A stretch of DNA of 64,000 bases from Trueperaceae bacterium (GTDB taxonomy: Bacteria; Deinococcota; Deinococci; Deinococcales; Trueperaceae): the NCBI GenBank assembly GCA_035703635.1, contig DASSXV010000005.1, positions 10,065 to 74,064 of the forward strand, read 5' to 3'. A program made the translations under genes and the position numbers. The notes beneath the pieces are model-generated. The model ran no database searches and was not told where the DNA came from. It saw only the letters and a program-made list of their open reading frames with translations. Below are positions 2,507 through 14,700 of this stretch, in pieces. Numbering within the stretch: the first letter of the stretch is position 1; each line of letters opens with the position of its first letter.

Positions 2507-5461
2507 GTGGCTAGCACGCTCGAGACGCTCGTGATCAAGCTCACGGCCGATGCTCGCCTCCTCGAGGCCGAGCTTGACAAGCAAGTCACCAAGGCCGAAC
2601 GTTCCGGAAAACGCATCGAAAGCGCATTCAGTTCCGGCCTGAAGTTCGCTGGCGCCATCGGCATCGCCGCGACCGGCCTGGCGACCGGCCTGACTGCGGC
2701 CGCGCAACGCGCCGCCACCTACGCCGACGAGATCGACCAGGCTGCCATCAAGACGCGCCTGGCACGCTCCACCGTCCAAGAACTACGGTACGCGACGGAC
2801 CAGGCAGGCGGCAGTTGGGCCGCCGTTGAGAGCAACGTGCGGGCGTTCACCGGCCGCATTGTCGAACTTGAGCGCGGCAGCGATCGCGCCGCAGCCACGT
2901 TCGCAGGCATCGGCGTCAGCGCCTACGACACCGGCGGTAAGCTCCGCGCCACCGAGGACGTGCTGCTAGACACGCTGCATGCCCTCGCAGGCATCAAGAA
3001 CGAGAGCGAGCGCGCAGCACGAACCGTTGAAGTGTTCGGGCAGTCCGGCACGGACCTGCTGCCGCTCCTATCCGTCGGCGCCTCGGGTATTGAAGAGTTG
3101 CGCTCGAAGGCCCACGAGCTTGGCCTGGTACTGGACGACCAGAGCATCGGAGCCCTCGTCACGTACAAGTCGGAGATCAGCCGCGTTCAGCAGCAGGTTG
3201 GTGCGCTCGGTCGTGAGTTCACCGTGGCACTCATGCCGATCCTGACAGGCGGCGTCCTGCCCGCCCTGCAGTCGGGCCTTGACCTGTTCCGCGCCTTACC
3301 GCAGCCCGTCAAGGAGTTCGGCGCCGTCACGGGGACGGCCGCTGTCGGAGTCGGCGCCCTCGCAGCAGCGTTGAGGCTCGTGGGCATCTCCGCCGCGCCG
3401 CTTCTCGGACCAGCCGGGATGTTCCTCGTCGCAGCAGCTGGCCTGGGGTACCTGGTCACCAAGTTCGTCGAGGCGGACGGGCCGCTGAAGGAGCACAAGA
3501 CTCACATCGATGAACTCCGGCAGGCGTACGAGGAGTACCGCGGTGAGATCAACGTCACGACGGACGCCGAGCGCGAGGGTGCCATCGCGCGGCTGCAGAC
3601 CATCCGCAGCGAGATGCTCGAGCGAGTCAGGCTCCTGCGCGAGTTGGCGAACGAGCAGAAGCAGAGCGTGCAGGGTTTCCTGAACAGCCCAATCGGGAAG
3701 TTCCTCATGCCGGGATTCCTCAACGTGGAGGCGTCCGCGGGTTACGGGACGCTCGCTGAGATCGACAAGCTCGAGGGCACCATCGCGAGTCTCGGGAGTG
3801 ACATCAAGGCGCTGCAGAGCGGCGCGACGGGCTTCGGGCCGGGCGTGACGCCGCCACCGCCGGGCGTGACGCCTCCGCCGGCCGGCACGACCGGCAGCGG
3901 TAGTGGTCGAGCAGTTGTGCGCACGTGGCAGATGGTCCTGGACGATCTCGACAGGGCTGGCACGGAAGCGATGCGCCGCGCGGCGTTCGAGGGCACGGAC
4001 GAGGCGTTCCGCGAGGCGGCCCGGAAACGCGTCACTCTCATCGACAACGCGATCACTGAGGCGTTGACGACGTTCTACGGGCAGGTGAGCCCGCAGGAAC
4101 TGGGGGCGTTAGCTGCCCGTCGCGCCCGGGCTGAACACGAGGCGCGCATCCCGGTCGCCGGAGGCACTCCGCCAGACCCCGCTGGTGTCGCGGCCCTGAA
4201 GGCGCAGGCGGACGCCATCATGGCGGACACTCTCCAAGCGAACCGTGACGCGCGTCTCCAAGAACTCAGGGAGACGCTGGCGCAGAACAGCGCCTTGCGC
4301 CAACAGGCGCTGGCCATCATGGCGGACACGAGCCAGGCGCAGGCTGACGCTCGCGCGGCCGAGGAAGCGCAACGCGCCTACATCGACTCCTTGGCTGATA
4401 GCGGCGGCGAACTTGGCCGGTGGTTGGCCACCGCTAACAACCTGACGGCGACCATCAAGTCTGCGAATGACGAGACGGCGCGCATGGGCGTGTTCGCTGA
4501 CGCCCTGGCCAAGTACGGCTCGGGTCGAGCTGGTCTCGCTGGCACTAGCGCCGCCGACCGCGGCAGCCTGCCATCACTCACCAGCCGTGGCGCCGCCGCC
4601 GACCTAGCCCGCGATACCGTCCTTGCCGTCGTCGACGCGTACCACGCTGGCGCCGCGACACTGGACGACGTTCGCGTGGCGGTCGAGGCGTGGACGAGCA
4701 TCACTCCCCAGACCGTCAAGGCGATCAATGACCTCACGGGCGGCATCCTGCAGTTGGCCATCGAGGCTGAACGCGCGAAGCAGCAGGCCGCGGCGCTGGC
4801 CGAGTTCGAGAGCAACCCGGGACTGTACGGCCTGCGAGACGTGCCGGGCGTCAAGGACTACTCTGCCGGCAAGGCAGTCGAGGCGCGGGACGCTTGGCGC
4901 GCCCCGGGCGACATCACGGGCGGTGTGAGGCGCAGCACCATCATCACGCGGGAGGAGGCAGAGGCGGCGCTCAGGGCTCAAGAGGCGTCAGCTGATAGGT
5001 TCGCGAGCACGGTTGTGTCGGCCGGCGCTACGTTCGCATCGGACCTCGTCTCAGCCATCCGCGACGGTGATGTCGGCGCGGCGTTCAAGTCCGCCCTGGG
5101 CTTCGGGCAGTCCGTCGTCGGCGCCGCCGACTTGGGTAGCCTGCCGTTCCTCGGCGGGAGCATCGGCATCGGCGCGTTGCTCAGCGTCGGCCTGGGTCTC
5201 ATCGGCAGCCTGATCGGCGCGATCGCAGGCGGCGGGAACAGCAAGGCGAGCGACGCAACGAACGCCATCAACCGCGGCTCCGTGCCGGCCATCAACCTGA
5301 ACTTCGTCGTGAACCAGTCGAACGTCTACAACGGCGCTCCAAGCGACCCTGCGAACGAGCAGGCGTTCGCGCGGCAGGCAGACGCATTGTTCGAGAGCAT
5401 CTATCGTCGCTACCTAGAGGACCGCTTCCGTCGCCTCGAGGTGCGAGTGGGCATCGCATGA
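2507..5461 (+). CDS. Tail tape measure protein (984 aa)
   Basis: N-terminal LETLVIKLTADA motif, Ala-rich helical sequence, hydrophobic segments, GGAGG RBS, position. Confidence 0.9.
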   Translation: MASTLETLVIKLTADARLLEAELDKQVTKAERSGKRIESAFSSGLKFAGAIGIAATGLATGLTAAAQRAATYADEIDQAAIKTRLARSTVQELRYATDQAGGSWAAVESNVRAFTGRIVELERGSDRAAATFAGIGVSAYDTGGKLRATEDVLLDTLHALAGIKNESERAARTVEVFGQSGTDLLPLLSVGASGIEELRSKAHELGLVLDDQSIGALVTYKSEISRVQQQVGALGREFTVALMPILTGGVLPALQSGLDLFRALPQPVKEFGAVTGTAAVGVGALAAALRLVGISAAPLLGPAGMFLVAAAGLGYLVTKFVEADGPLKEHKTHIDELRQAYEEYRGEINVTTDAEREGAIARLQTIRSEMLERVRLLRELANEQKQSVQGFLNSPIGKFLMPGFLNVEASAGYGTLAEIDKLEGTIASLGSDIKALQSGATGFGPGVTPPPPGVTPPPAGTTGSGSGRAVVRTWQMVLDDLDRAGTEAMRRAAFEGTDEAFREAARKRVTLIDNAITEALTTFYGQVSPQELGALAARRARAEHEARIPVAGGTPPDPAGVAALKAQADAIMADTLQANRDARLQELRETLAQNSALRQQALAIMADTSQAQADARAAEEAQRAYIDSLADSGGELGRWLATANNLTATIKSANDETARMGVFADALAKYGSGRAGLAGTSAADRGSLPSLTSRGAAADLARDTVLAVVDAYHAGAATLDDVRVAVEAWTSITPQTVKAINDLTGGILQLAIEAERAKQQAAALAEFESNPGLYGLRDVPGVKDYSAGKAVEARDAWRAPGDITGGVRRSTIITREEAEAALRAQEASADRFASTVVSAGATFASDLVSAIRDGDVGAAFKSALGFGQSVVGAADLGSLPFLGGSIGIGALLSVGLGLIGSLIGAIAGGGNSKASDATNAINRGSVPAINLNFVVNQSNVYNGAPSDPANEQAFARQADALFESIYRRYLEDRFRRLEVRVGIA

Positions 5462-5901
5462 GCACGACCGTCACGTTCACTAGTCCCATCAGCCCGACGG
5501 CGTTCACGGGCTTCACGCTTCAAAGCGCGGACCGGCAGGCGCTCGAGGTGTTGCGCGACGAAGGCCAAGTGCGGTACGGGTTCTCGTTCATCGGCAATAA
5601 CCTGAAGGCCAGCTACGAGAAGCTCGCGCCCATCGCCGTCGTGAACCTCCTCAATGGTGCCCCCAGCATGACCCTCGATGGTCATCTGGTCGCGGCAGCC
5701 ATCGGCCAGGGCGCCCTGGTGCAGGTCGCCGTTACCGGCGGCCCCACGCGAGTGGGGATCATCACGAATCTCGTCTGGCAGGTGGGCCGCGGCGGGGGGT
5801 TCGGGCAGCGCCTCGACTTCGTGCTCCACCGCTGCCACCGACTACACGTCCGGAGCGGCGGCACCGTCACCACCAGCACAGACCCAGCGGTGAGCGGCTG
5901 A
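5458..5901 (+). CDS. Putative distal tail protein
   Basis: Coupled (ATGA) directly after the tape measure gene; beta-rich. Confidence 0.5.
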   Translation: MSTTVTFTSPISPTAFTGFTLQSADRQALEVLRDEGQVRYGFSFIGNNLKASYEKLAPIAVVNLLNGAPSMTLDGHLVAAAIGQGALVQVAVTGGPTRVGIITNLVWQVGRGGGFGQRLDFVLHRCHRLHVRSGGTVTTSTDPAVSG

Positions 5902-8201
5902 TGGCCGAGTACGTAGGGGGCACCAGCAACAGCTTCGGCAGCGGAACGACCATGACGCTCATCGCCCCAGGCGCTGTGCAGCCGGGCGACAAACTGTACC
6001 TGTTCGCCGCGGGACGCTCTTCGGACGCGCCGCCGGTGTGGAGTGACCCGCTCGGATGGGCGCGCGTAGACGGGAGCCTCCAGGTCCCGACCGTCACCCG
6101 TGGCGCGGCGTGGGAGCGCACCGCGCAGGCGGGCGACGCGCTGGCTGCGGTCACTGTCGGCGCGGACCGGGGCCTCACCGCCGCCGTCGGCGTCCTGGTG
6201 GCGTTCCGCGGATACGACATGACCGTCGGCCAGTGGTTCTTCGGCGAGCAGGCACCGGTCGTCGTGCCAGTGGAGCTGGCGCCGGGCGACCTCTTCGCGG
6301 CGTTCGCGTTCTCCGCGAACAACGCGACCTCCGGCCCTCTCGACACCGACGGAGTGTTCCCGCGGCTGTTCCACCCCACCAGGGGCTTCAACCCCACCCT
6401 GCACGGCGCGTTCCTCTCCGGCCTCGCGCCGACGCCGCTCACCCAGGTGACGATCGGCCACGACATCGGCACGACATGGGCCAGCATCGGCGTGTTCGCC
6501 GTGTCGGGCGTCCCCGCCCAGAGCGCTCCGCGCATCCGCAGCAGCGTCAGTGAGGACGCGGGGAGTTTGTTTCAGGCGACTCAGGCAGCGGCCGTGGAGT
6601 TGGGCTTATCGGAAGCGTTCGAGTACGGCGCAGACATTCCGGCTGGTCGGTTGCGGTCTTTCAGTGAGGCGCTGACCCCGGACGCAACGGCGGTCAGTTA
6701 TTACCCGTTGCCGACGCGCAATCAGGAGATGCTCACCACGGTCGAGGGCGAGACGAACCTCGGTCGGCTGGCCGGCGTCTACCCGAGCGGCATCATGGTT
6801 CCCGCCACGAGCATCCCCGGCGCGGTCGGGGGCGTCGTGACGGCGCAGCAGGCCATCCAGTACGTCACGGCTCAGTGGGCGAGCGCGCACCCCTGGCTGT
6901 CGTTCGCGCCGATTCCCGACTTGCGGTTGATGGTGCCTAGCGCCGTCGCCGCGCCCAGGCAACACTACTTGGATAACCCCGGTGACGGCGTGCTCACCAC
7001 GGCGGCGGTCGTGATTCCGCAGGAGGGCAACGAGCGCCGCTCGATGCGCGAAATCCTCGACGAGTGGCTCGCGATTTTCCCCGGAACCATCGTCAGGCAG
7101 ACGAGCACCGGAGTGATTGAGTTGGTGCCGCGCGTGGGGCCGGACGCACCCAGCGGGGCAGCCGTGACGCTCACGTGGGGCGACCTCACCGGCATCAGCG
7201 ATGGCGAGGACGACCCGAGCGGCGTCACGAACAGGTGCCGCGTCACCAGCCAAGGATGGGAGTTCACGGACAACCAAACACTCAGGCCACCGGCGTTCGT
7301 CGTGTCAATCGGCGGGTTAGGCATCGACCGCAGCGTCCTGGATGGCGAGGCGGTCATCCCGGACGACGCGGAGGAGTTCCAGCCGTGGCGCACGATCCCG
7401 TTCACGGTGTTGGTTGACGGCGGGAACAACGTGACGGTGAACGTCGGCGTCACGGCGTTCGGGTCGTGGAACCGCGCGGCCGCCACCTCGTTCAGCGTGG
7501 AGGGCACCGCGTTCCCGAGCGTGACGTTGGCGGTAGGGCAGTCGGCGGAGGTAAGCATCACGCATACGAGCCGTGCTCTGAGTGTCACGGCCACGTGGCG
7601 ACTCATGCGCGTGACGAGCGTCGCCATTGATGTCGTGCCAGTCACCGTTCCGAGTTACGCGGAGAACCCTCTGGGCCGCACTTACCTGGCGTATCTCCTG
7701 GAGTTCGACATCATTGGCACCGCCTGGGTGCGCTCGAACGAGAGCGTTACGAGCGAGTTCGGGCAGGACGGCGTGGGCATCCCGGCTGATGGCGGCGGTG
7801 ACGCCATTGCTGACAGTCGCGCTCAGTACGGTGAGCGCCTCGCGCAGTTGCAGAGCAACATCTTCCAACTGACGCCCGAACAGGCGCAGGCGGCCGCGCA
7901 GTCCTACGTCTTGTGGAACGTCAATCCGCGCACCATCCGCGACGTGCAGCAGTCGGAATGGAACAAGTTCCCGGTGCGGTTCGACCACATCGGCAGGCTC
8001 GTGGATTTGCCGACGGGCGAGAGGGCGGTCATCGAGAACCGCAGTTATAGCGATTCGTTCAGCAGTACGAGCGGGATGATGCGAAGCACCTTCTCGGCGA
8101 GCGTTACGGAGGTCGTTATCGACACGGACACTCACTGGCTCCTACTAGACGACGGTGACTGGTTCCAACTCGACTCAGGCGAGATGGTGGAGGAAAGCTG
8201 A
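5901..8201 (+). CDS. Tail tip/baseplate hub-like protein (766 aa)
   Basis: Large beta-rich ORF in the tail module; VTNRCRVT and SRAQYGER...SNIF patterns typical of siphovirus hub proteins. Confidence 0.6.
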   Translation: MAEYVGGTSNSFGSGTTMTLIAPGAVQPGDKLYLFAAGRSSDAPPVWSDPLGWARVDGSLQVPTVTRGAAWERTAQAGDALAAVTVGADRGLTAAVGVLVAFRGYDMTVGQWFFGEQAPVVVPVELAPGDLFAAFAFSANNATSGPLDTDGVFPRLFHPTRGFNPTLHGAFLSGLAPTPLTQVTIGHDIGTTWASIGVFAVSGVPAQSAPRIRSSVSEDAGSLFQATQAAAVELGLSEAFEYGADIPAGRLRSFSEALTPDATAVSYYPLPTRNQEMLTTVEGETNLGRLAGVYPSGIMVPATSIPGAVGGVVTAQQAIQYVTAQWASAHPWLSFAPIPDLRLMVPSAVAAPRQHYLDNPGDGVLTTAAVVIPQEGNERRSMREILDEWLAIFPGTIVRQTSTGVIELVPRVGPDAPSGAAVTLTWGDLTGISDGEDDPSGVTNRCRVTSQGWEFTDNQTLRPPAFVVSIGGLGIDRSVLDGEAVIPDDAEEFQPWRTIPFTVLVDGGNNVTVNVGVTAFGSWNRAAATSFSVEGTAFPSVTLAVGQSAEVSITHTSRALSVTATWRLMRVTSVAIDVVPVTVPSYAENPLGRTYLAYLLEFDIIGTAWVRSNESVTSEFGQDGVGIPADGGGDAIADSRAQYGERLAQLQSNIFQLTPEQAQAAAQSYVLWNVNPRTIRDVQQSEWNKFPVRFDHIGRLVDLPTGERAVIENRSYSDSFSSTSGMMRSTFSASVTEVVIDTDTHWLLLDDGDWFQLDSGEMVEES

Positions 8202-8998
8202 TGGCTAAGTGGACAAGCAAACCGATAGCAACCACCTTCGCCGACAACGACGTCGTGCTCCTCGCGGACGTTAGTGAACCCGCCGGCACGCAAGATCGAC
8301 GCGCGACCCTCGCCGCGCTCCGAACGTTCTTGGGCGCGGGCATCACGGTCGGTGTGACTCAAGCAAGCCACGGCCTGTCCGTGGGCGACGTCGTCCGGTT
8401 CGATGGCACCAGTTACGTGCAGGCTACCGCCGACACCGCCGGAAACGCGGAGGCCGTCGGAGTCGTGACCGCCGTGCCCGATAGCGGTACGTTCGCGTAC
8501 CAGACGGCAGGCGTCGCCTCGACGCTCTCAGGCCTGACGCCGGGCGAGCTGTACCACCTCAAAGACGATGGTTCGCTGGGCACCTCGGCTGGCACGGTGG
8601 ACAAGCCCGTCCTCATCGCCACCAGCGCCACGACAGCCGTGCTCATCCTCGCCATCAGCGGCGCAGGCGGCGGCGGCTCCGACCCGACGCGTATCCCGAA
8701 ACTTGCTGTAGTCCGCGCCTACGGTACAAGCGCCAGCCTCGACGAGGACGACGACCTCGCCGCGTACGTACGCGTCACGGCCGCGGCTACCATCACCCTC
8801 CCCGATGGTTTCCCGGCCGGTTGGCAGTGCGTGCTCGTGAACGCCACCGACAGCGACACGGTCGAGCTGGACGCCGCAACGACCCTCACCCTGCCTGCAG
8901 GTTTCGAGCCGGAGATCCAGAACCGCCGCGCAGTCACCGTCATCCACGTCGGCAGCAACGTGTGGGAGGCGCACGGCGCCTTAGTGGAGACCCCCTAG
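8201..8998 (+). CDS. Tail fibre / receptor-binding protein candidate
   Basis: VTQASHGLSVGDVV...GLTPGELY module, GGGGS linker, C-terminal ITLPDGFPAGWQC...WEAHGAL fibre-tip-like module. Confidence 0.6.
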   Translation: MAKWTSKPIATTFADNDVVLLADVSEPAGTQDRRATLAALRTFLGAGITVGVTQASHGLSVGDVVRFDGTSYVQATADTAGNAEAVGVVTAVPDSGTFAYQTAGVASTLSGLTPGELYHLKDDGSLGTSAGTVDKPVLIATSATTAVLILAISGAGGGGSDPTRIPKLAVVRAYGTSASLDEDDDLAAYVRVTAAATITLPDGFPAGWQCVLVNATDSDTVELDAATTLTLPAGFEPEIQNRRAVTVIHVGSNVWEAHGALVETP

Positions 8999-9705
8999 TG
9001 TTCCCGGCGGTTCACGGGATCGCAAGCCAAGGCAACAAGGGCGGCGCGCCCAACCCGGTGGAGTTCGGCGTGCTCGGCGTCAGCAGCGCCGGGCACGATC
9101 CCGTCGGCAGCGACCACACGGTGCCCTTGCCCGAGGGGGAGGGCGGACTCTTGGTGGTGATAGCCAAGGGCGCCGGAGGCACTCAACTGCGGTGGAGCGC
9201 GCCGGGGGGCTGGACGACTGCGGCATCGGAAGGCGACGGCTCCACCAACTGGCCGGTCGTCGTGTTCGCGCGCATGGTTGACGGCACCGAACCGGACATC
9301 CTCACGTTCAGCACGATGAACTCCCTGGGCACCGCACCTACGGTGGCTGGCAGCGCGCTGGTCGCGTACCGGGTGGCGGGCGCGCACGGCGCCGTGGAGG
9401 CCGCCTTCTCGTCCGTCGCGAACCCCCCGGCCCTCACGCCCTCCTGGGGCGCCGCAGAGATCCTGTGGATTGCCGCCTTCACCAGCCGCCTGAGCAACGG
9501 CACCTTCACCGCGCCGCCAGCGAACTACGGTGGCCTCACGCCCGCGAGGAGCCCGACCATAAGCGCGACCAACACGTACGCGCAGATGGCCACGGCGCAC
9601 CGCCTCCACACCGCCGCCACCGAAGACCCCGGCACATTCGCATTCACGGGCACCACCAACGGCCTCTTCACCGCCACCATTGCCGTGCGGGCCGCCGCGC
9701 CGTGA
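8998..9705 (+). CDS. Putative minor tail / fibre-associated protein (235 aa)
   Basis: GTG at 8998 overlaps the upstream TAG; Gly/Thr/Ala-rich beta protein. Confidence 0.55.
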   Translation: MFPAVHGIASQGNKGGAPNPVEFGVLGVSSAGHDPVGSDHTVPLPEGEGGLLVVIAKGAGGTQLRWSAPGGWTTAASEGDGSTNWPVVVFARMVDGTEPDILTFSTMNSLGTAPTVAGSALVAYRVAGAHGAVEAAFSSVANPPALTPSWGAAEILWIAAFTSRLSNGTFTAPPANYGGLTPARSPTISATNTYAQMATAHRLHTAATEDPGTFAFTGTTNGLFTATIAVRAAAP

Positions 9706-9708
9706 ACC

Positions 9709-10344
9709 CTAAGCGGAGCGCACCAATCGGTACTCGGGCGGCGCGCCCCTCGCGACCGGCACGCGCTCCACTAGGCCCGCATCCACCGCCCGTGCCGTCG
9801 CCATCAGCACCGCGCCGCGCGTCACTCGCAAGCGCTCCTCTAGTTCGGCGGCGGTGGCTGGTCCTTGCTGCAGGCCTCGGCAGAGGCGCGCTACGGCTGG
9901 CGGCAGGTTCTCGTATGGGTCGGGCTCATGCTCCGCCAGGTGCGTCTTGGCTGTCGCCGTGAGTCGCCAATCCCTGCCCGTCTGCGTGACCAACTCTGCG
10001 GCCTTGAGGGTCTTGAGGGCGGCGCTCACAGTCTCGGGCGCACGCCCGATTGTCTCGGCCAGTTCACCGCGCGTGGCCGCTCCGCCTCGCAGCGCCGTGA
10101 GCACGAGCCGCTCGGTGGGCGTCAGGCCAGGCACGTCAGGAGCAGCAGCGGTGGCCGCCCGCTCGACCTCACCGGGCGCGGGTGCTGGCGCGTCCTCGCG
10201 CCTCACGACGAGCGCCGAGCCGACAACCTCGACGAGGAGCGTGGCGTCCAGGTCGCCGTCAGGCAGGAGCGCCGCGAGCAGGTCGCGGTCCAACAACAAG
10301 ACTCTGCTGTTGCCCAGCTTCTGCAGTTTCTTACGCACCGTCAT
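9709..10344 (-). CDS. AbrB/MazE-like DNA-binding domain fused to two winged-HTH domains
   Basis: N-terminal KLQKLGNSRVLLLDRDLL...LLVEVVGSALVVR (AbrB signature), then two LTPTERLVL..ATRGELAE / LPPAVARL..ATAAELEE HTH modules; start may be 10362. Confidence 0.75.
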   Translation of the reverse strand: MTVRKKLQKLGNSRVLLLDRDLLAALLPDGDLDATLLVEVVGSALVVRREDAPAPAPGEVERAATAAAPDVPGLTPTERLVLTALRGGAATRGELAETIGRAPETVSAALKTLKAAELVTQTGRDWRLTATAKTHLAEHEPDPYENLPPAVARLCRGLQQGPATAAELEERLRVTRGAVLMATARAVDAGLVERVPVARGAPPEYRLVRSA

Positions 10345-10415
10345 CTGACGGGATTCTGACACGCCATGTGAGGAAAATCAGAGATTCGTAAGAGCCAGGT
10401 GAGTACGCTCCTCCT

Positions 10416-10470
10416 CAGCCGACCGGAATCCCGGCGGTGCACTACCAGGCGACCGGACATCATTCATACT
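10416..10470 (+). promoter_or_regulatory. Candidate pilin promoter/operator: direct repeat CAGSCGACCGGA plus a -10-like CATACT
   Basis: CAGCCGACCGGAATC (10416) and CAGGCGACCGGACATC (10446), 30 bp apart; CATACT at 10465-10470. Confidence 0.35.
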
Positions 10471-10503
10471 TCATCCCGGGAGCCGAATCGGAAGGAGCGC
10501 ATC

Positions 10504-10890
10504 ATGCGCAACCGTAAGACGCAGGGCTTCACCCTGATCGAGCTGCTGATCGTCATCGCGATCATCGGCATCCTCGCCGCCGTACTCATCCCCAACCTCA
10601 TGAGCGCCCGCCGCACCGCCGCCACCCGCGCCGCCGACAGCTACGTTCGTAACGTCTACACGGCTGCGCAGGCCTACCTTGCGGAAAATGTCGCTGCTGA
10701 CCCGGCGACCGACGCTGTTGTAAACGCGAGCTGCGACGGCTCTTACACCGCCGTCAACTATGGCGCCACGGGCGGTTCGGCCAACATCCTCACCGGCTGC
10801 ACTGTTGCTGGGACTTCGGGTGACATTGTCGTGGCCTTCACCTATGGTCCTGGAACAACGCAAAGCGGCACCGCTGCCACGTTCCCTTAA
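10504..10890 (+). CDS. pilA: Type IV major pilin (PilA4-like), prophage-encoded
   Basis: AAGGAG RBS; class III signal MRNRKTQG|FTLIELLIVIAIIGILAAVLIPNL with E5 and P22; 120-aa mature protein with two Cys. Confidence 0.93.
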   Translation: MRNRKTQGFTLIELLIVIAIIGILAAVLIPNLMSARRTAATRAADSYVRNVYTAAQAYLAENVAADPATDAVVNASCDGSYTAVNYGATGGSANILTGCTVAGTSGDIVVAFTYGPGTTQSGTAATFP

Positions 10891-10916
10891 GCCGTAAGTT
10901 CCCTTCGTTTGATGTT

Positions 10917-10944
10917 GGCCGCCTTTCGGGGCGGCCTTCTCTTT
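10917..10944 (+). terminator. Intrinsic terminator 1 after the pilin gene
   Basis: GGCCGCCT-TTCG-GGGCGGCC followed by TTCTCTTT. Confidence 0.8.
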
Positions 10945-10960
10945 GACGCACCAACCTAAC

Positions 10961-10989
10961 GCCCCCGCCTCTCGGCGGGGTTTTTCTTT
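10961..10989 (+). terminator. Intrinsic terminator 2 after the pilin gene
   Basis: CCCCGCC-TCTC-GGCGGGG followed by TTTTTCTTT. Confidence 0.85.
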
Positions 10990-10998
10990 GCCTCACAC

Positions 10999-11026
10999 GC
11001 CCCGCCCAGCGCGGGGCTTTTCGTTT
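10999..11026 (+). terminator. Intrinsic terminator 3 after the pilin gene
   Basis: GCCCCGC-CCAGC-GCGGGGC followed by TTTTCGTTT. Confidence 0.85.
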
Positions 11027-11035
11027 GGAGAGGAG

Positions 11036-11533
11036 TTGGTCAACCTGACGGTGAACGAGGCCATAGTCGAGGCGGCAGTAGCAGCCGCCAACGGGCGCAT
11101 CACCACCCTGCCCACCAAGCCCGGGTACTGCCTGGCGTTCGTGCGGTGCATCATCGAGCGAGCACTCTGGTCAGGGCAGTGGCAACTCTACGACCGGTTC
11201 CTGGTGGCCGGCACGAGTCGCCGCGGCGACGACCCCGCCGTGAACCTGCGGGAAGCCAAGGAGGACCCCTGGGCCGCCGACTTCGAGGCGAGCGTCAAGC
11301 GGCTGGGGTGGGCGATTCCTAGTCTGCTGCGGAAGCCGGGCGATTTGGTGTTCGATCACCGCGCGGCGGCACCCATCGGGCACGTGGGAATCCTGCTCTC
11401 GCGTGGGTTGGTGATCGAGAACATTCACCCGACTTTTCGGCCGAAGAGCATCCACTTGGGGAACAGCATCAGCATCACGCCGTTTGATGCGCGGCCGTGG
11501 ACGCTCGTGGCTCGAGTGCAGCCGGACAGGTGA
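11036..11533 (+). CDS. Endolysin, CHAP/NlpC-P60-type cysteine peptidase
   Basis: GYCLAFVR (catalytic Cys), PGDLVF, GHVGI (His), VIEN; GGAGAGGAG RBS; start 11036 or 11051; upstream of the holin. Confidence 0.75.
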   Translation: MVNLTVNEAIVEAAVAAANGRITTLPTKPGYCLAFVRCIIERALWSGQWQLYDRFLVAGTSRRGDDPAVNLREAKEDPWAADFEASVKRLGWAIPSLLRKPGDLVFDHRAAAPIGHVGILLSRGLVIENIHPTFRPKSIHLGNSISITPFDARPWTLVARVQPDR

Positions 11534-11595
11534 GCGCTCGTTGGACAGCGTACCTGCGGCGTCGCCTCATGCGGCGCATCCCCCGCAAACCCTAG
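11530..11595 (+). CDS. Possible 21-aa cationic micro-peptide MSARWTAYLRRRLMRRIPRKP
   Basis: GTGA overlap with the lysin stop; otherwise unsupported. Confidence 0.25.
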   Translation: MSARWTAYLRRRLMRRIPRKP

Positions 11596-11902
11596 CCCAA
11601 CCTGTCAGGAATCCTTACGGGTTCCCCGCCCGAGAGGAGGTGAGACCGGGCTGAAGCGACAGCCGCACGCCAGAATCCTGGCTCCAGCATGAGCGCTTTT
11701 GAGGACGGCGCTCCCCCAGAGGATGCCCAGCGGGGGAGCGCCAACCACCACTGATTGGAGGACGCCTTGACCGCAGTCAGCACCTTGATCTCGTGAGAGA
11801 GGTGGTCCAGTCTCCCGGCGCTCGGGTCACAAGCGCACCCGCACCAACAGAGCAACCCCGCCCCCGCGCAGACAGCCGGGGGCGTTCCCAATGGAGGTAA
11901 GC

Positions 11903-12265
11903 ATGACCAAGATCATCCCCCTACTGCTCGCCCTGCTCGCTAACGTCATCGGCTTGTCCGAAGACATGCGCGACCCCGCCACGTGGGTGCTCAGCACCGG
12001 CGCGCTCGGCGCAGTCGTGTGGGCCACCGTGCAGTTCCTCAGGGCCAGCATCCTCAAGCAACTCGACGGCGTCGCCGTCATCTTCGCTAGCATCGCTGTC
12101 GGCGCTGGTTTGTCTGTCGCCCTGGGCGCAGGCGGTTACGCGGGTGTCGGCAGCACGCTGGTTGAGTGGTTGGCGTTCGGCGTGTCTGCCGGGTTCGGCG
12201 CGACGCTCCTCGATCAGGGCGCGAAGGCACTCCCAAAGCCTGGGGCGGCGCACTTGGAGAGTTGA
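11903..12265 (+). CDS. Putative holin (3-4 TM)
   Basis: GGAGGT RBS; small multi-TM protein with a charged C-terminus, near the endolysin. Confidence 0.65.
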   Translation: MTKIIPLLLALLANVIGLSEDMRDPATWVLSTGALGAVVWATVQFLRASILKQLDGVAVIFASIAVGAGLSVALGAGGYAGVGSTLVEWLAFGVSAGFGATLLDQGAKALPKPGAAHLES

Positions 12266-12658
12266 GTGCGCCGCCTGCACCCGCTCCTCATCACGATTCT
12301 CGCGACGATGTCGCTCGCGAGCGCGCAAGACGTAGACGCTAGTCCGTCGCCCCCGTTCAGTGTTCTGGCCGGTTCGAGTATCACGTGCTCGAGCACCTGG
12401 CCGAGTGCGGTCGTGGGCTGCTTCTGGGAGCGCCCAGTCCTGGTGCTCGGCGCTCTCGAGCTAGCCGTCGGCGTGGATGCCGAGGTCGTGCTTGGCGGCC
12501 AGCTCGACGGGCACCTAGCGCCCTATGTCGTCGCTGCTTACTACGCCGACACGTGGAGCGCCTGGACGGAGGTGCGCCTACCCGAACTGGGCGGCATCAA
12601 ACCCATTGGCGATAGCAACTGGTTGAGAGCCGGGTTCACCCTGAGATTTCCACCTTAG
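12266..12658 (+). CDS. Secreted protein, small outer-membrane beta-barrel-like
   Basis: Sec signal (..SLASA|QD), alternating amphipathic strands, C-terminal WLRAGFTLRF beta-signal-like motif. Confidence 0.55.
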   Translation: MRRLHPLLITILATMSLASAQDVDASPSPPFSVLAGSSITCSSTWPSAVVGCFWERPVLVLGALELAVGVDAEVVLGGQLDGHLAPYVVAAYYADTWSAWTEVRLPELGGIKPIGDSNWLRAGFTLRFPP

Positions 12659-13279: not shown

Positions 13280-13936
13280 TCAGTAGATCGTCTGGGTGAC
13301 GTCAGCGCCCTTGGCCATCTGCCGCCTGCGATAAATCTCTGAGTCACGGGCTGGGCGGACGATTGAGGCGTTCGGCATCCACTTGACCGCATTACGTGCT
13401 GCCTGATTGCGGGCCACGTCAGCCGGATTGGCGCCACCGATCACCGCGAAGAGGATAATCACAAACGCGTATCGCCCGAGGGTTTGCGTGAGATCGGCAG
13501 CCCCCTTCTTGAGGTTCGGGTAGCTCAGGATGCCTAGAACTACCGCCACCATCGTCAGCAGGAGGGTGAGCCAACCTACTACGTTGACCATGTGCAGGAT
13601 CGATAGGTAGAGGAGCAACCACAATCCGTAGGTGAGGAAGATGCGGCGAAGCCGCCACCCTAGACCCTGTGCCAGGAGCACGGCCTCGGAGCGGTATAGC
13701 AGCATGGTCAGGACCGTTGCGAATATGAACACCGGCGCCATTATTGACGTTGCCGTTTGCTGCGTCACGTCGTGGATGCGAAAGTAATAAAGGCCAGCGA
13801 ACAGCGTCGAAGCGACGAGCACCACAATAGTGACTGCCATCCACTTCGCGAAGTACAGGACGGTCCTCCACGCGCCCCCCATCAGGAGAGGCGCCACAAA
13901 CGAGCTGCCGTACAAGAATCGATGCTTGTCACTCAC
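13280..13936 (-). CDS. Multi-pass membrane protein (about 6 TM), prophage cargo
   Basis: GAGGAGG RBS, GTG coupled to the upstream gene; many hydrophobic segments; more A/T-rich than the flanks. Confidence 0.7.
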   Translation of the reverse strand: MSDKHRFLYGSSFVAPLLMGGAWRTVLYFAKWMAVTIVVLVASTLFAGLYYFRIHDVTQQTATSIMAPVFIFATVLTMLLYRSEAVLLAQGLGWRLRRIFLTYGLWLLLYLSILHMVNVVGWLTLLLTMVAVVLGILSYPNLKKGAADLTQTLGRYAFVIILFAVIGGANPADVARNQAARNAVKWMPNASIVRPARDSEIYRRRQMAKGADVTQTIY

Positions 13937-14345
13937 TGTCGCCACCTCCTCGATTCGGAGTGGGAACGAAGAGCCGCCAGGTAGTTATAGCAGCCAGTCT
14001 AGCAGTTGCCAGGAGCGCCACGGTTAACCAAGCAGCTGATCCCCAAAGACCACCCTCCACGATCAATCCTCGGACAATCCGACCGGCCAGGATGTCCCCG
14101 AGGCCACCAAACACTTGATCGATACCGTCGAAGGCCCAACTGGTCGCCGTTAGGACGGCATAAATGACGACGCCGGCGACCGCAGACTCGAGGATGTTCA
14201 ACACGGCGCGCCATTGAGGTGCGGATGCGGCGACGGCGCCCACGGCCCATATGCGGGGCCCGATCCGAATCACGCGCTTGCCAATTACGACTGCTACGCG
14301 CAATTCACCATCTGGTTTATTCTTCCCGTCGTTCATCGTGCTCAA
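13929..14345 (-). CDS. Small membrane protein (2-3 TM), prophage cargo
   Basis: Hydrophobic segments; translationally coupled to the downstream membrane gene. Confidence 0.55.
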   Translation of the reverse strand: MSTMNDGKNKPDGELRVAVVIGKRVIRIGPRIWAVGAVAASAPQWRAVLNILESAVAGVVIYAVLTATSWAFDGIDQVFGGLGDILAGRIVRGLIVEGGLWGSAAWLTVALLATARLAAITTWRLFVPTPNRGGGDSE

Positions 14346-14608: not shown

Positions 14609-14623
14609 CCGTCGTGCTTTTCT

Positions 14624-14700
<77 letters not shown>

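Follow-up and report, generated by a model that had tools for sequence, protein, structure and literature searches.

The 64,000-nucleotide stretch analysed here (hereafter the window; G000:C70:10065-74064, from a metagenome-assembled genome) contains, within a real prophage, a complete gene for a type IV prepilin of the PilA4 type, paired with a divergently transcribed gene for a phage-specific regulator. Comparison with the pilA gene of the host chromosome shows the viral gene to be another allele of that pilA: the signals for expression and the segment that enters the filament core are nearly those of the host, while the exposed domain is of another type. Such a cassette would allow a lysogen to change the surface of its pili. 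We hold with moderate confidence that it does so, and that the main benefit is exclusion of pilus-binding phages.

The reading frame at 10399..10890 (+) begins, as a gene, with the ATG at 10504, and a Shine-Dalgarno sequence, GGAAGGAG, lies 8-15 bases 5' of this codon. The product has a class III signal peptide – a short basic leader of eight residues with a terminal Gly – and a mature protein of 120 residues in which Phe comes first and which contains Glu5, Pro22 and two Cys. The protein matches N_methyl in Pfam (5e-10), IV_pilin_GFxxxE in NCBIfam (33.6 bits, cut-off 16.3; no equivalog cut-off was reached in the NCBIfam scan) and family 3433 of PHROG ('pilin', moron category, 3.2e-10). The closest solved structure by sequence is 6xxd, the PilA (PilA4) of Thermus thermophilus (E 3.7e-13 over residues 9-126; the match takes in the whole mature protein). 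Thermus PilA4 is a major pilin that forms the 'wide' pilus and serves natural transformation; its gene is chromosomal, whereas the window gene lies on a prophage. The AlphaFold2 model (built from an alignment of 48 sequences) has a predicted local distance difference test score (pLDDT) of 89.6 and shows a helix at residues 11-61 followed by a five-stranded beta sheet: the long N-terminal helix and alpha-beta globular domain of a type IV pilin. VIA-align places the model closest to two T. thermophilus pilins (TTHA1221, Z 8.7; TTHA1222, Z 8.4), with the gonococcal pilin at Z 5.8, and pilins make up seven of the ten top Foldseek rows against the PDB, the E-values being weak (best 0.01).

These results uphold what an earlier interpretation, made from the letters of the DNA (the sequence-only reading), had proposed for the gene, namely an intact stand-alone pilin with its own ribosome-binding site, a PilA4-type N-terminus and its own terminators: three terminator-like hairpins follow the pilin, and a scan of 9600-11200 found five hairpin sites against 1.0 expected. 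As a stand-alone gene among late genes, with its own terminators and a probable promoter, the pilin has the make-up of a phage moron. It is not a silent cassette of the pilS type: start codon, Shine-Dalgarno sequence, signal peptide and leader are all present. A tblastn search with the pilin against 50,697 GenBank phage records gave no match at E 1e-3, and thus no relative in a cultured phage.

The surrounding DNA is that of a temperate, siphovirus-like prophage integrated at a tRNA-Arg gene. To the left of the window, C70:1-10065 encodes small and large terminase, scaffold, major head, neck, head-completion and tail-completion proteins; the tape measure gene and a distal tail region follow within the window. 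The open reading frames (ORFs) of 5458..9705 match nothing in Pfam, PHROG or NCBIfam. The last 100 residues of the 8201-8998 product are 81% identical to a protein of L017, a virus from IMG/VR, and the gene at 8821-9705 shows partial homology to an L017 ORF with virion and baseplate PHROG matches. The latter gene had been called the last tail gene, a designation that its position and its L017 homologue support and for which it offers no family match of its own. To the right of ~14.6 kb lie three tRNA genes and then ordinary cellular genes, including one for a phosphoglucomutase-family enzyme. The 46-base repeat at the 3' end of the tRNA-Arg gene (14623-14668) is 100% identical to C79:23506-23551, which is ~200 bases from an integrase match (C79:23750-24316). 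If C79 abuts C70, the prophage probably runs from C79:23506 to the end of that contig and on through C70:1-24732, a span of at least ~37.4 kb.

The cassette is not peculiar to this prophage. Searches with the pilin found one IMG/VR virus (L017: 38.4 kb, linear, CheckV 100%), 14 loci in species genomes and 68 metagenome loci, whose flanks were classified by tblastn with prophage proteins and with the neighbours of the host pil locus. Seventeen of the metagenome loci lie in phage context, 23 in host context and two in mixed context, and 26 have no informative flanks; the genome loci divide into one phage locus (L012, in a metagenome-assembled genome), five host loci and eight that are uninformative. 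Some phage-context loci are duplicates (L038 is L017; L079 and L080 share an identical pilin, as do L055 and L056). At every one of 13 distinct places a homologue of the regulator (31-79% identical) is found divergent from the pilin and 141-319 bases upstream of it, much as the sequence-only reading had described for the window; phage-context loci without a regulator match have fewer than 450 bases upstream of the pilin.

The loci had been selected by their pilin, and a search starting from the regulator was therefore added. Among 128 family genomes, eight have a match at E <= 0.001, but only two have a strong one (G000, and G072, the bearer of L012), and in both it stands beside a pilin; the regulator alignment, run against IMG/VR, found L017 alone. 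The regulator is a true partner of the pilin. Wherever flanks suffice, the pair sits between tail-fibre genes and the same downstream, lysis-region genes: just upstream of the regulator are tail-fibre or minor-tail PHROG matches in L012, L076, L078 and L079, and virion and baseplate matches in L017. The tail-fibre genes themselves differ among the phages that bear the cassette, and the tape measure protein of the window finds no match in L017; the cassette and some of its neighbours are held in common, the whole tail is not. The cassette is common in environmental phages of the Deinococcaceae.

Recurrence bears on the simplest objection, that the cassette is an artefact of assembly or binning, or a decaying passenger gene devoid of function. 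The N-terminal repeat does break or mis-join assemblies: locus L016 ends within the start of a pilin, and L036 is a hybrid of phage and host sequence. Against this, the specific C-terminal half of the pilin runs on, at its 3' side, directly into phage genes, independent assemblies from several sources repeat the order regulator, pilin, downstream genes, and none of the 14 complete phage-context pilins is interrupted or shortened; we consider the objection very improbable. An assembly chimera with the host pil locus, one of the circumstances that the sequence-only reading named as refuting its proposal, is rejected on the same grounds of contiguity and recurrence, both at the 3' junction and with respect to the whole cassette, and the pilin's place in the phage stands.

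What the cassette contains becomes apparent from comparison with the host. A scan of the genome for class III signal peptides found the window pilin on C70, a cluster on C81 and two further instances on C29. The C81 cluster opens with a pilA of 128 residues, continues with a GspH-like pilin and more minor pilins and includes a 595-residue PilX-like protein; upstream of it are genes for RelA/SpoT and a low-molecular-weight phosphotyrosine phosphatase. When positions 9000-12500 of the window were compared with the genome outside the window's own contig, the sole match was 10411-10692, to this pilA. Identity along the alignment is markedly uneven. It amounts to 36-49% on the regulator side and in the distal intergenic sequence, rises to 66% over bases -93..-61 and to 97% (58/60) over bases -60..-1, and remains at 95% (100/105) through codons 1-35; it then falls to 71% (60/84) in codons 36-63, 44% (86/195) in codons 64-128 and 35% between the stop codon and the hairpin, returns to 100% (20/20) in the first terminator hairpin (10917-10936, the host pilA terminator) and drops to 37-40% beyond it. 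The cassette thus combines the expression signals and assembly segment of the host with a different exposed domain.

At the protein level the two prepilins do not differ in their first 33 residues; in the exposed C-terminal part, identity is 32% with the resident allele and 70% with a chromosomal allele of a related strain. Over the whole protein, and across the 18 genomes of the genus, the viral pilin is closest to the host's own PilA, the product of the gene that heads the C81 cluster (59%), with other species at 45-50%. Phage and resident alleles could be compared within one genome (G000): in G072, the second genome with a cassette, the contig ends 16 residues into the chromosomal pilA (C84:8318-8359; L016). 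The repeat formed by the shared leader and N-terminal segment seemingly breaks short-read assemblies, and pilin copies in such genomes are therefore probably under-counted.

No second match to the N-methyl motif, PilD, T2SSE ATPase or secretin families was found inside the window, in agreement with the earlier statement that the window holds no other pilus genes. The search covered these four families. Elsewhere the genome encodes a prepilin peptidase (Peptidase_A24, on C74), a long PilB/PilF-like ATPase, three PilT-like ATPases and a secretin, with pilus-family matches on C81, C29, C74, C65, C86, C83 and C64; the host PilD/PilB-type machinery that the sequence-only reading presupposed therefore exists. 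From what is understood of pilus biology, the peptidase should, given identical N-terminal 33 residues, recognise the viral pilin as it does the resident one, and the two should pack alike in the core of the filament; we think it likely that the host machinery assembles the viral product.

The leader that precedes the start codon also has a structure backed by covariation. Leaders from 35 loci (the window and 34 others, in phage, host and mixed contexts) were aligned, and RNAalifold predicts two hairpins, one at the 5' end and a small one around the start codon. Pairing cells make up 88.5% on this structure compared to 73.3% in shuffled alignments; the covariation score is 0.374 against 0.136 for shuffles (0/500 as high), and although kinship among the sequences can inflate a shuffle test, the safer comparison, with slid controls, gave at most 0.114. 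In the first helix changes on both sides occur in 6/6 pairs. The window leader folded by itself shows both hairpins, with a whole-fold z-score of only -1.96. A search of 10300-11100 against Rfam at a lax threshold gave no match on the leader, and weak rows, below gathering scores, on the terminators. This bacterial family has a conserved pilA leader RNA of ~95 bases, common to host and phage copies. Folded as a single sequence, the leader pairs a UCCUCC stretch of its 5' end with the Shine-Dalgarno sequence, which in this model suggests translational control. 5' of the leader hairpin the alignment shows, by eye, a conserved promoter-like block in which GTAAG occurs twice and is accompanied by a TA..CT box; a consensus promoter scan found no sigma-70 site upstream of the pilin and did not flag the block.

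The regulator lies on the other side of this control region. In Pfam it matches MarR_2 (1.6e-13) and other winged helix-turn-helix (wHTH) families, and wHTH families match 12/12 aligned homologues; a profile of the 12 homologues matches MazE/PemI/AbrB chains at positions 8-53 (E 4e-4 to 4e-3). The regulator gene starts ~40-60 bases from the promoter-like block of the pilin, a layout that would be typical of back-to-back promoters. At its other end it converges with the last tail gene, three bases separating the two stop codons (window 9705-9709).

A further question concerns the origin of the viral allele. Hypervariable exposed domains between conserved N-termini and flanks, with recombination between copies, are familiar from the pilin groups of Pseudomonas aeruginosa and from pilE/pilS of Neisseria. 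The present system resembles both, and differs from that of Neisseria in that the additional copy is on a phage and is complete and promoter-bearing rather than a silent, partial cassette. Several viral pilins are closer to a host-context pilin than to any other phage pilin: the best host-context and best phage matches are 85% and 54% for the window pilin, 73% and 52% for that of L076, and 57% and 49% for that of L012. A maximum-likelihood tree was built from 36 pilins (23 host, 11 phage, 2 mixed) after omission of 27 rows lacking informative flanks and collapse of identical rows that bore one label. The phage label, carried by 11 rows, changes nine times along this tree compared to a mean of 9.5 when labels are shuffled, and the label is therefore not clustered; the starred branches alone force at least four switches between host and phage. 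The window pilin pairs with 98% support with host-context L033, the chromosomal pilA locus of a related strain, to whose pilin it is 85-86% identical. The phosphatase upstream in L033 is 97% identical to that of the present host, whereas the minor pilins downstream are ~30% identical.

The chromosomal locus is itself extremely polymorphic. Seven host-context alleles are identical over the first 32 residues and just 17-32% identical in their C-terminal parts. Five of these (L065, L071, L073, L075, L086) adjoin a RelA/SpoT gene that is 98.8-100% identical to the host's; the other two are the host's own allele (L001) and L033, whose contig has the phosphatase (97%) and lacks RelA/SpoT. Bordered by RelA/SpoT and phosphatase genes and, at its other end, by the minor pilins, the chromosomal pilA locus is hypervariable, and the tree shows that phage and host alleles have been exchanged repeatedly. 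In one sequence (L036:1502-4982) a phage regulator (76%) is followed by a pilin that is the host chromosomal pilA (100%) and then by the host minor pilins (100%), the switch falling, by eye, in the near-identical leader: L036 is a recombinant or, failing that, a chimera formed in assembly where phage and host share the leader repeat. In contigs of sludge DNA the match to the window breaks off at 10598-10634 and is taken up again at 10916-10963; other alleles fill the space between these flanks. Another arrangement is seen in L077 (8001-8967), where a chromosomal-context pilin, with RelA/SpoT and phosphatase upstream, is followed by a 34% homologue of the putative phage lysin; farther along, the minor-pilin operon is inverted.

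It might be argued that the phage is chiefly a vehicle, or donor, of pilA alleles, any function inside the prophage being secondary. The sharp boundaries of identity at leader and terminator, the interleaving of host and phage pilins on the tree, and the joints in L036 and in the sludge DNA are all as such a role would have them. Yet those joints may be chimeras at the ~170-base shared repeat, and the strict linkage to the regulator, together with intact expression signals in all phage copies, argues for use in place. We judge it distinctly unlikely that donation is the principal role; the idea is in any case compatible with surface conversion and does not replace it. A broader proposal is offered tentatively, as a possibility we are inclined to doubt: temperate phages of the Deinococcaceae would form a mobile library of expressed pilA alleles, exchanged with the chromosome by homologous recombination through the shared leader and terminator, with a dedicated regulator that makes the viral allele dominant. 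Were it true, phages would both drive and exploit host pilin polymorphism, and which pilin a cell displays would be decided partly by the prophages that it carries.

Many phages use type IV pili as receptors, and in the Thermus-Deinococcus group these pili are the route of DNA uptake. In the mechanism that we propose, the cassette comprises two accessory genes, placed between tail-fibre and lysis-region genes: a DNA-binding regulator and a pilA allele from the host pool, acquired with the host core promoter region, structured leader, signal peptide, assembly helix and terminator. The lysogen would transcribe and translate the viral pilin as it does host pilA; the host prepilin peptidase would cleave it, and the host machinery polymerise it with, or in place of, resident PilA. 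Given the same buried helix and an exposed domain of another type, the outcome would be a working pilus with a changed surface, to which phages that bind the resident pilus shaft – relatives and the phage's own progeny included – would adsorb poorly. The regulator probably sets the balance between viral and chromosomal pilin, and the conserved flanks would permit alleles to be swapped between phage and chromosome by homologous recombination. The 'serotype conversion' of the sequence-only reading accordingly becomes, on the evidence of sequence comparison, a concrete proposal: 33 N-terminal residues shared with the resident pilin, and a C-terminal part of another type. Expression of the pilin, its incorporation into pili, the exclusion of phages and the target of the regulator are each something that we infer.

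Several observations weigh against this mechanism. No terminator was predicted between the tail genes and the regulator in the scan of 9600-11200, and late phage transcription could therefore reach the cassette (antisense through the regulator and into the pilin); expression of the pilin might then be lytic, not lysogenic. The MazE-like N-terminal domain of the regulator allows other roles, and its target is putative. That the pilus is the receptor of this phage is an assumption. The contig with the host pilA (C81) and that with the prophage were united by binning, with a contamination estimate of 0.73%. In a search of sequencing runs the best match was a soil metagenome, probably the source of the window, and no RNA run of this organism was found; a single 197-base contig, from an RNA library of sludge, spans 10689-10885 (depth 2.2, one mismatch) and may stem from DNA carry-over or from a chromosomal copy of the allele. 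Stretches that the runs leave uncovered carry no weight. Depth in RNA libraries is very high at 10488-10611, but this is the N-terminal segment conserved across many organisms and is uninformative for the window gene.

The last such point comes from L033: its minor pilins are ~30% identical to those of this host, and the viral pilin might for that reason assemble poorly here and poison the pilus. A viral pilin that enters through the identical helix and then fits badly would lower piliation and block both phages and DNA uptake, an action that has been proposed for truncated PilA-like proteins of Pseudomonas phages (PMC12952977); and a related strain with the same type of pilin does have another set of minor pilins. 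The gene, however, is full length and its globular domain confidently folded in the model, and phage copies retain whole, diverse C-terminal domains like those of functional chromosomal alleles, which an inhibitor would not need. Poisoning seems to us improbable.

Pilus-surface conversion could serve another end. Expression of the pilin might benefit the host – in adhesion, biofilm formation, twitching or DNA uptake – or provide a receptor for a partner virus, as in the mutualism of SNJ1 and SNJ2. Every argument concerning assembly applies equally to this alternative. Provirus pilins of Natrinema are dominant, aid biofilm formation and motility, and act as the receptor of a second virus (PMC12426801), and chromosomal pilA is polymorphic even among contigs with nearly identical RelA/SpoT genes. 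The sequence nevertheless indicates no particular host benefit, while the fixed site beside hypervariable tail-fibre genes, and the precedent of P-FimU (below), fit competition between phages better. We regard the alternative as unlikely, if less so than poisoning or a role mainly in allele donation.

Pilin genes on proviruses are known from publications of 2025-2026, in the form of prophage PilA-like genes, phage FimU and archaeal provirus pilins. P-FimU of F10-like prophages in P. aeruginosa replaces a component of the pilus by a working variant to which phages fail to bind, and blocks adsorption (Sztanko et al. 2026, PMC12952977). Like the window pilin it is prophage-encoded and homologous to a structural protein of the host pilus, its gene lies in or beside the tail gene cluster, and it is diverse among phages and has conserved promoter regions. 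It differs in being a minor (tip) pilin, of which 28% is identical to its host counterpart (PMC12952977), whereas the window protein is probably the major, shaft subunit, from a cassette with a near-host N-terminus and leader RNA, a host-type terminator and a linked regulator; the function of P-FimU has been demonstrated, whereas the window cassette is known from sequence. The same report describes PilA-like proteins in prophages of Xylella fastidiosa and in four groups of virulent phages. The Xylella protein (P-PilA) is, like ours, a major-pilin homologue known from sequence; it is ~50% identical to host PilA and occurs in prophages of several morphotypes. It belongs to another phylum, and the main-text section devoted to it makes no mention of shared regulatory flanks, a linked regulator or exchange with the chromosome (PMC12952977).

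The third case is the archaeal provirus SNJ2, whose PilA1 and PilA2 are assembled by the host machinery into dominant filaments (Xiang et al. 2025, PMC12426801). As is proposed for the window pilin, the major pilins of this provirus use host machinery, and phylogeny suggests several independent acquisitions from hosts. The SNJ2 system, by contrast, is an archaeal type IV pilus on a pleolipovirus, with roles shown as the receptor of another virus, in biofilm and in motility; that of the window is bacterial, on a tailed phage, and has an actual linked, putative regulator. The SNJ2 authors speculate that viral regulators favour viral pilins (PMC12426801), and the window regulator is a candidate for such a factor.

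The claim of novelty in the sequence-only reading accordingly needs division. Prophage pilins as such are not new, as Xylella (PMC12952977) and SNJ2 (PMC12426801) attest; the Deinococcota setting is, full-text literature searches having found no report of a pilin in a phage or prophage of this phylum. Also new are a cassette that keeps the leader, assembly segment and terminator of the host, its strict linkage to a regulator, its interleaving with chromosomal alleles and its frequency in environmental phages of this family. In the published accounts, as far as they are cited here, experimental replacement of a pilus component by a prophage concerns the minor tip pilin of Pseudomonas and the archaeal provirus pilins only, and bacterial major pilins on phages have received a brief sequence-based note; the window provides a well-defined case. 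Its shared leader, assembly helix and terminator offer a mechanism for both compatibility with the host and exchangeability. If the exclusion model is true, prophage content would set the pilus type of a cell, its sensitivity to phages and perhaps its transformability.

Coordinates of the cassette and of neighbouring prophage features (positions in the window)
Feature	Position	Strand	Basis or remark
Tail tape measure protein	2507..5461	+	PHROG tape-measure families, best 1e-23
Distal tail/tail-fibre region	5458-5901, 5901-8201, 8201-8998, 8821-9705	+	position after tape measure gene
Phage-specific regulator, 217 residues	9709..10362	-	AbrB/MazE-like N-terminal domain and two winged-helix domains; divergent from pilin
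Host-type pilA control region	10383..10503	+	promoter-like block, leader hairpin 10418-10438, Shine-Dalgarno 10489-10496, start-codon hairpin 10497-10509
Type IV prepilin, probably the major one, PilA4 type, complete, 128 residues (mature 120)	10504..10890	+	family, PDB and model matches
Three tandem terminator-like hairpins	10917-10936, 10963-10980, 10999-11017	+	terminator scan
First gene 3' of cassette, possible NlpC/P60-like cell-wall peptidase (putative endolysin)	~11036..11533	+	protein-atlas lead alone
Conserved downstream phage genes	11891-12265, 12266-12658, 12867-13172	+	homologues in related loci
Right attachment-site repeat	14623..14668		in tRNA-Arg(ACG) 14624-14700 (-)

The first gene 3' of the cassette is the one that had been called the endolysin. 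The gene is present where it was placed, and the name is plausible; no Pfam, PHROG or NCBIfam family matches it. Among the 17 phage-context metagenome loci, 10 have a homologue of it after the pilin, as does L017. Homologues of the three genes that follow keep their order 3' of the pilin in L012, L017, L056, L076, L078, L079 and L088. Between the lysis-region genes and the attachment site, two ORFs of 221 and 138 residues occupy 13280-14345 on the minus strand; they have no family matches and no homologues in related phage loci, and may be further accessory genes. In the left part of the prophage, two genes lie between those for the small and large terminase (L002, which is G000:C70; 479-850 and 1704-2399): a VRR-NUC nuclease-like gene and a DUF5131 gene, the latter gene matching PHROG 2045 at E 3.5e-95.

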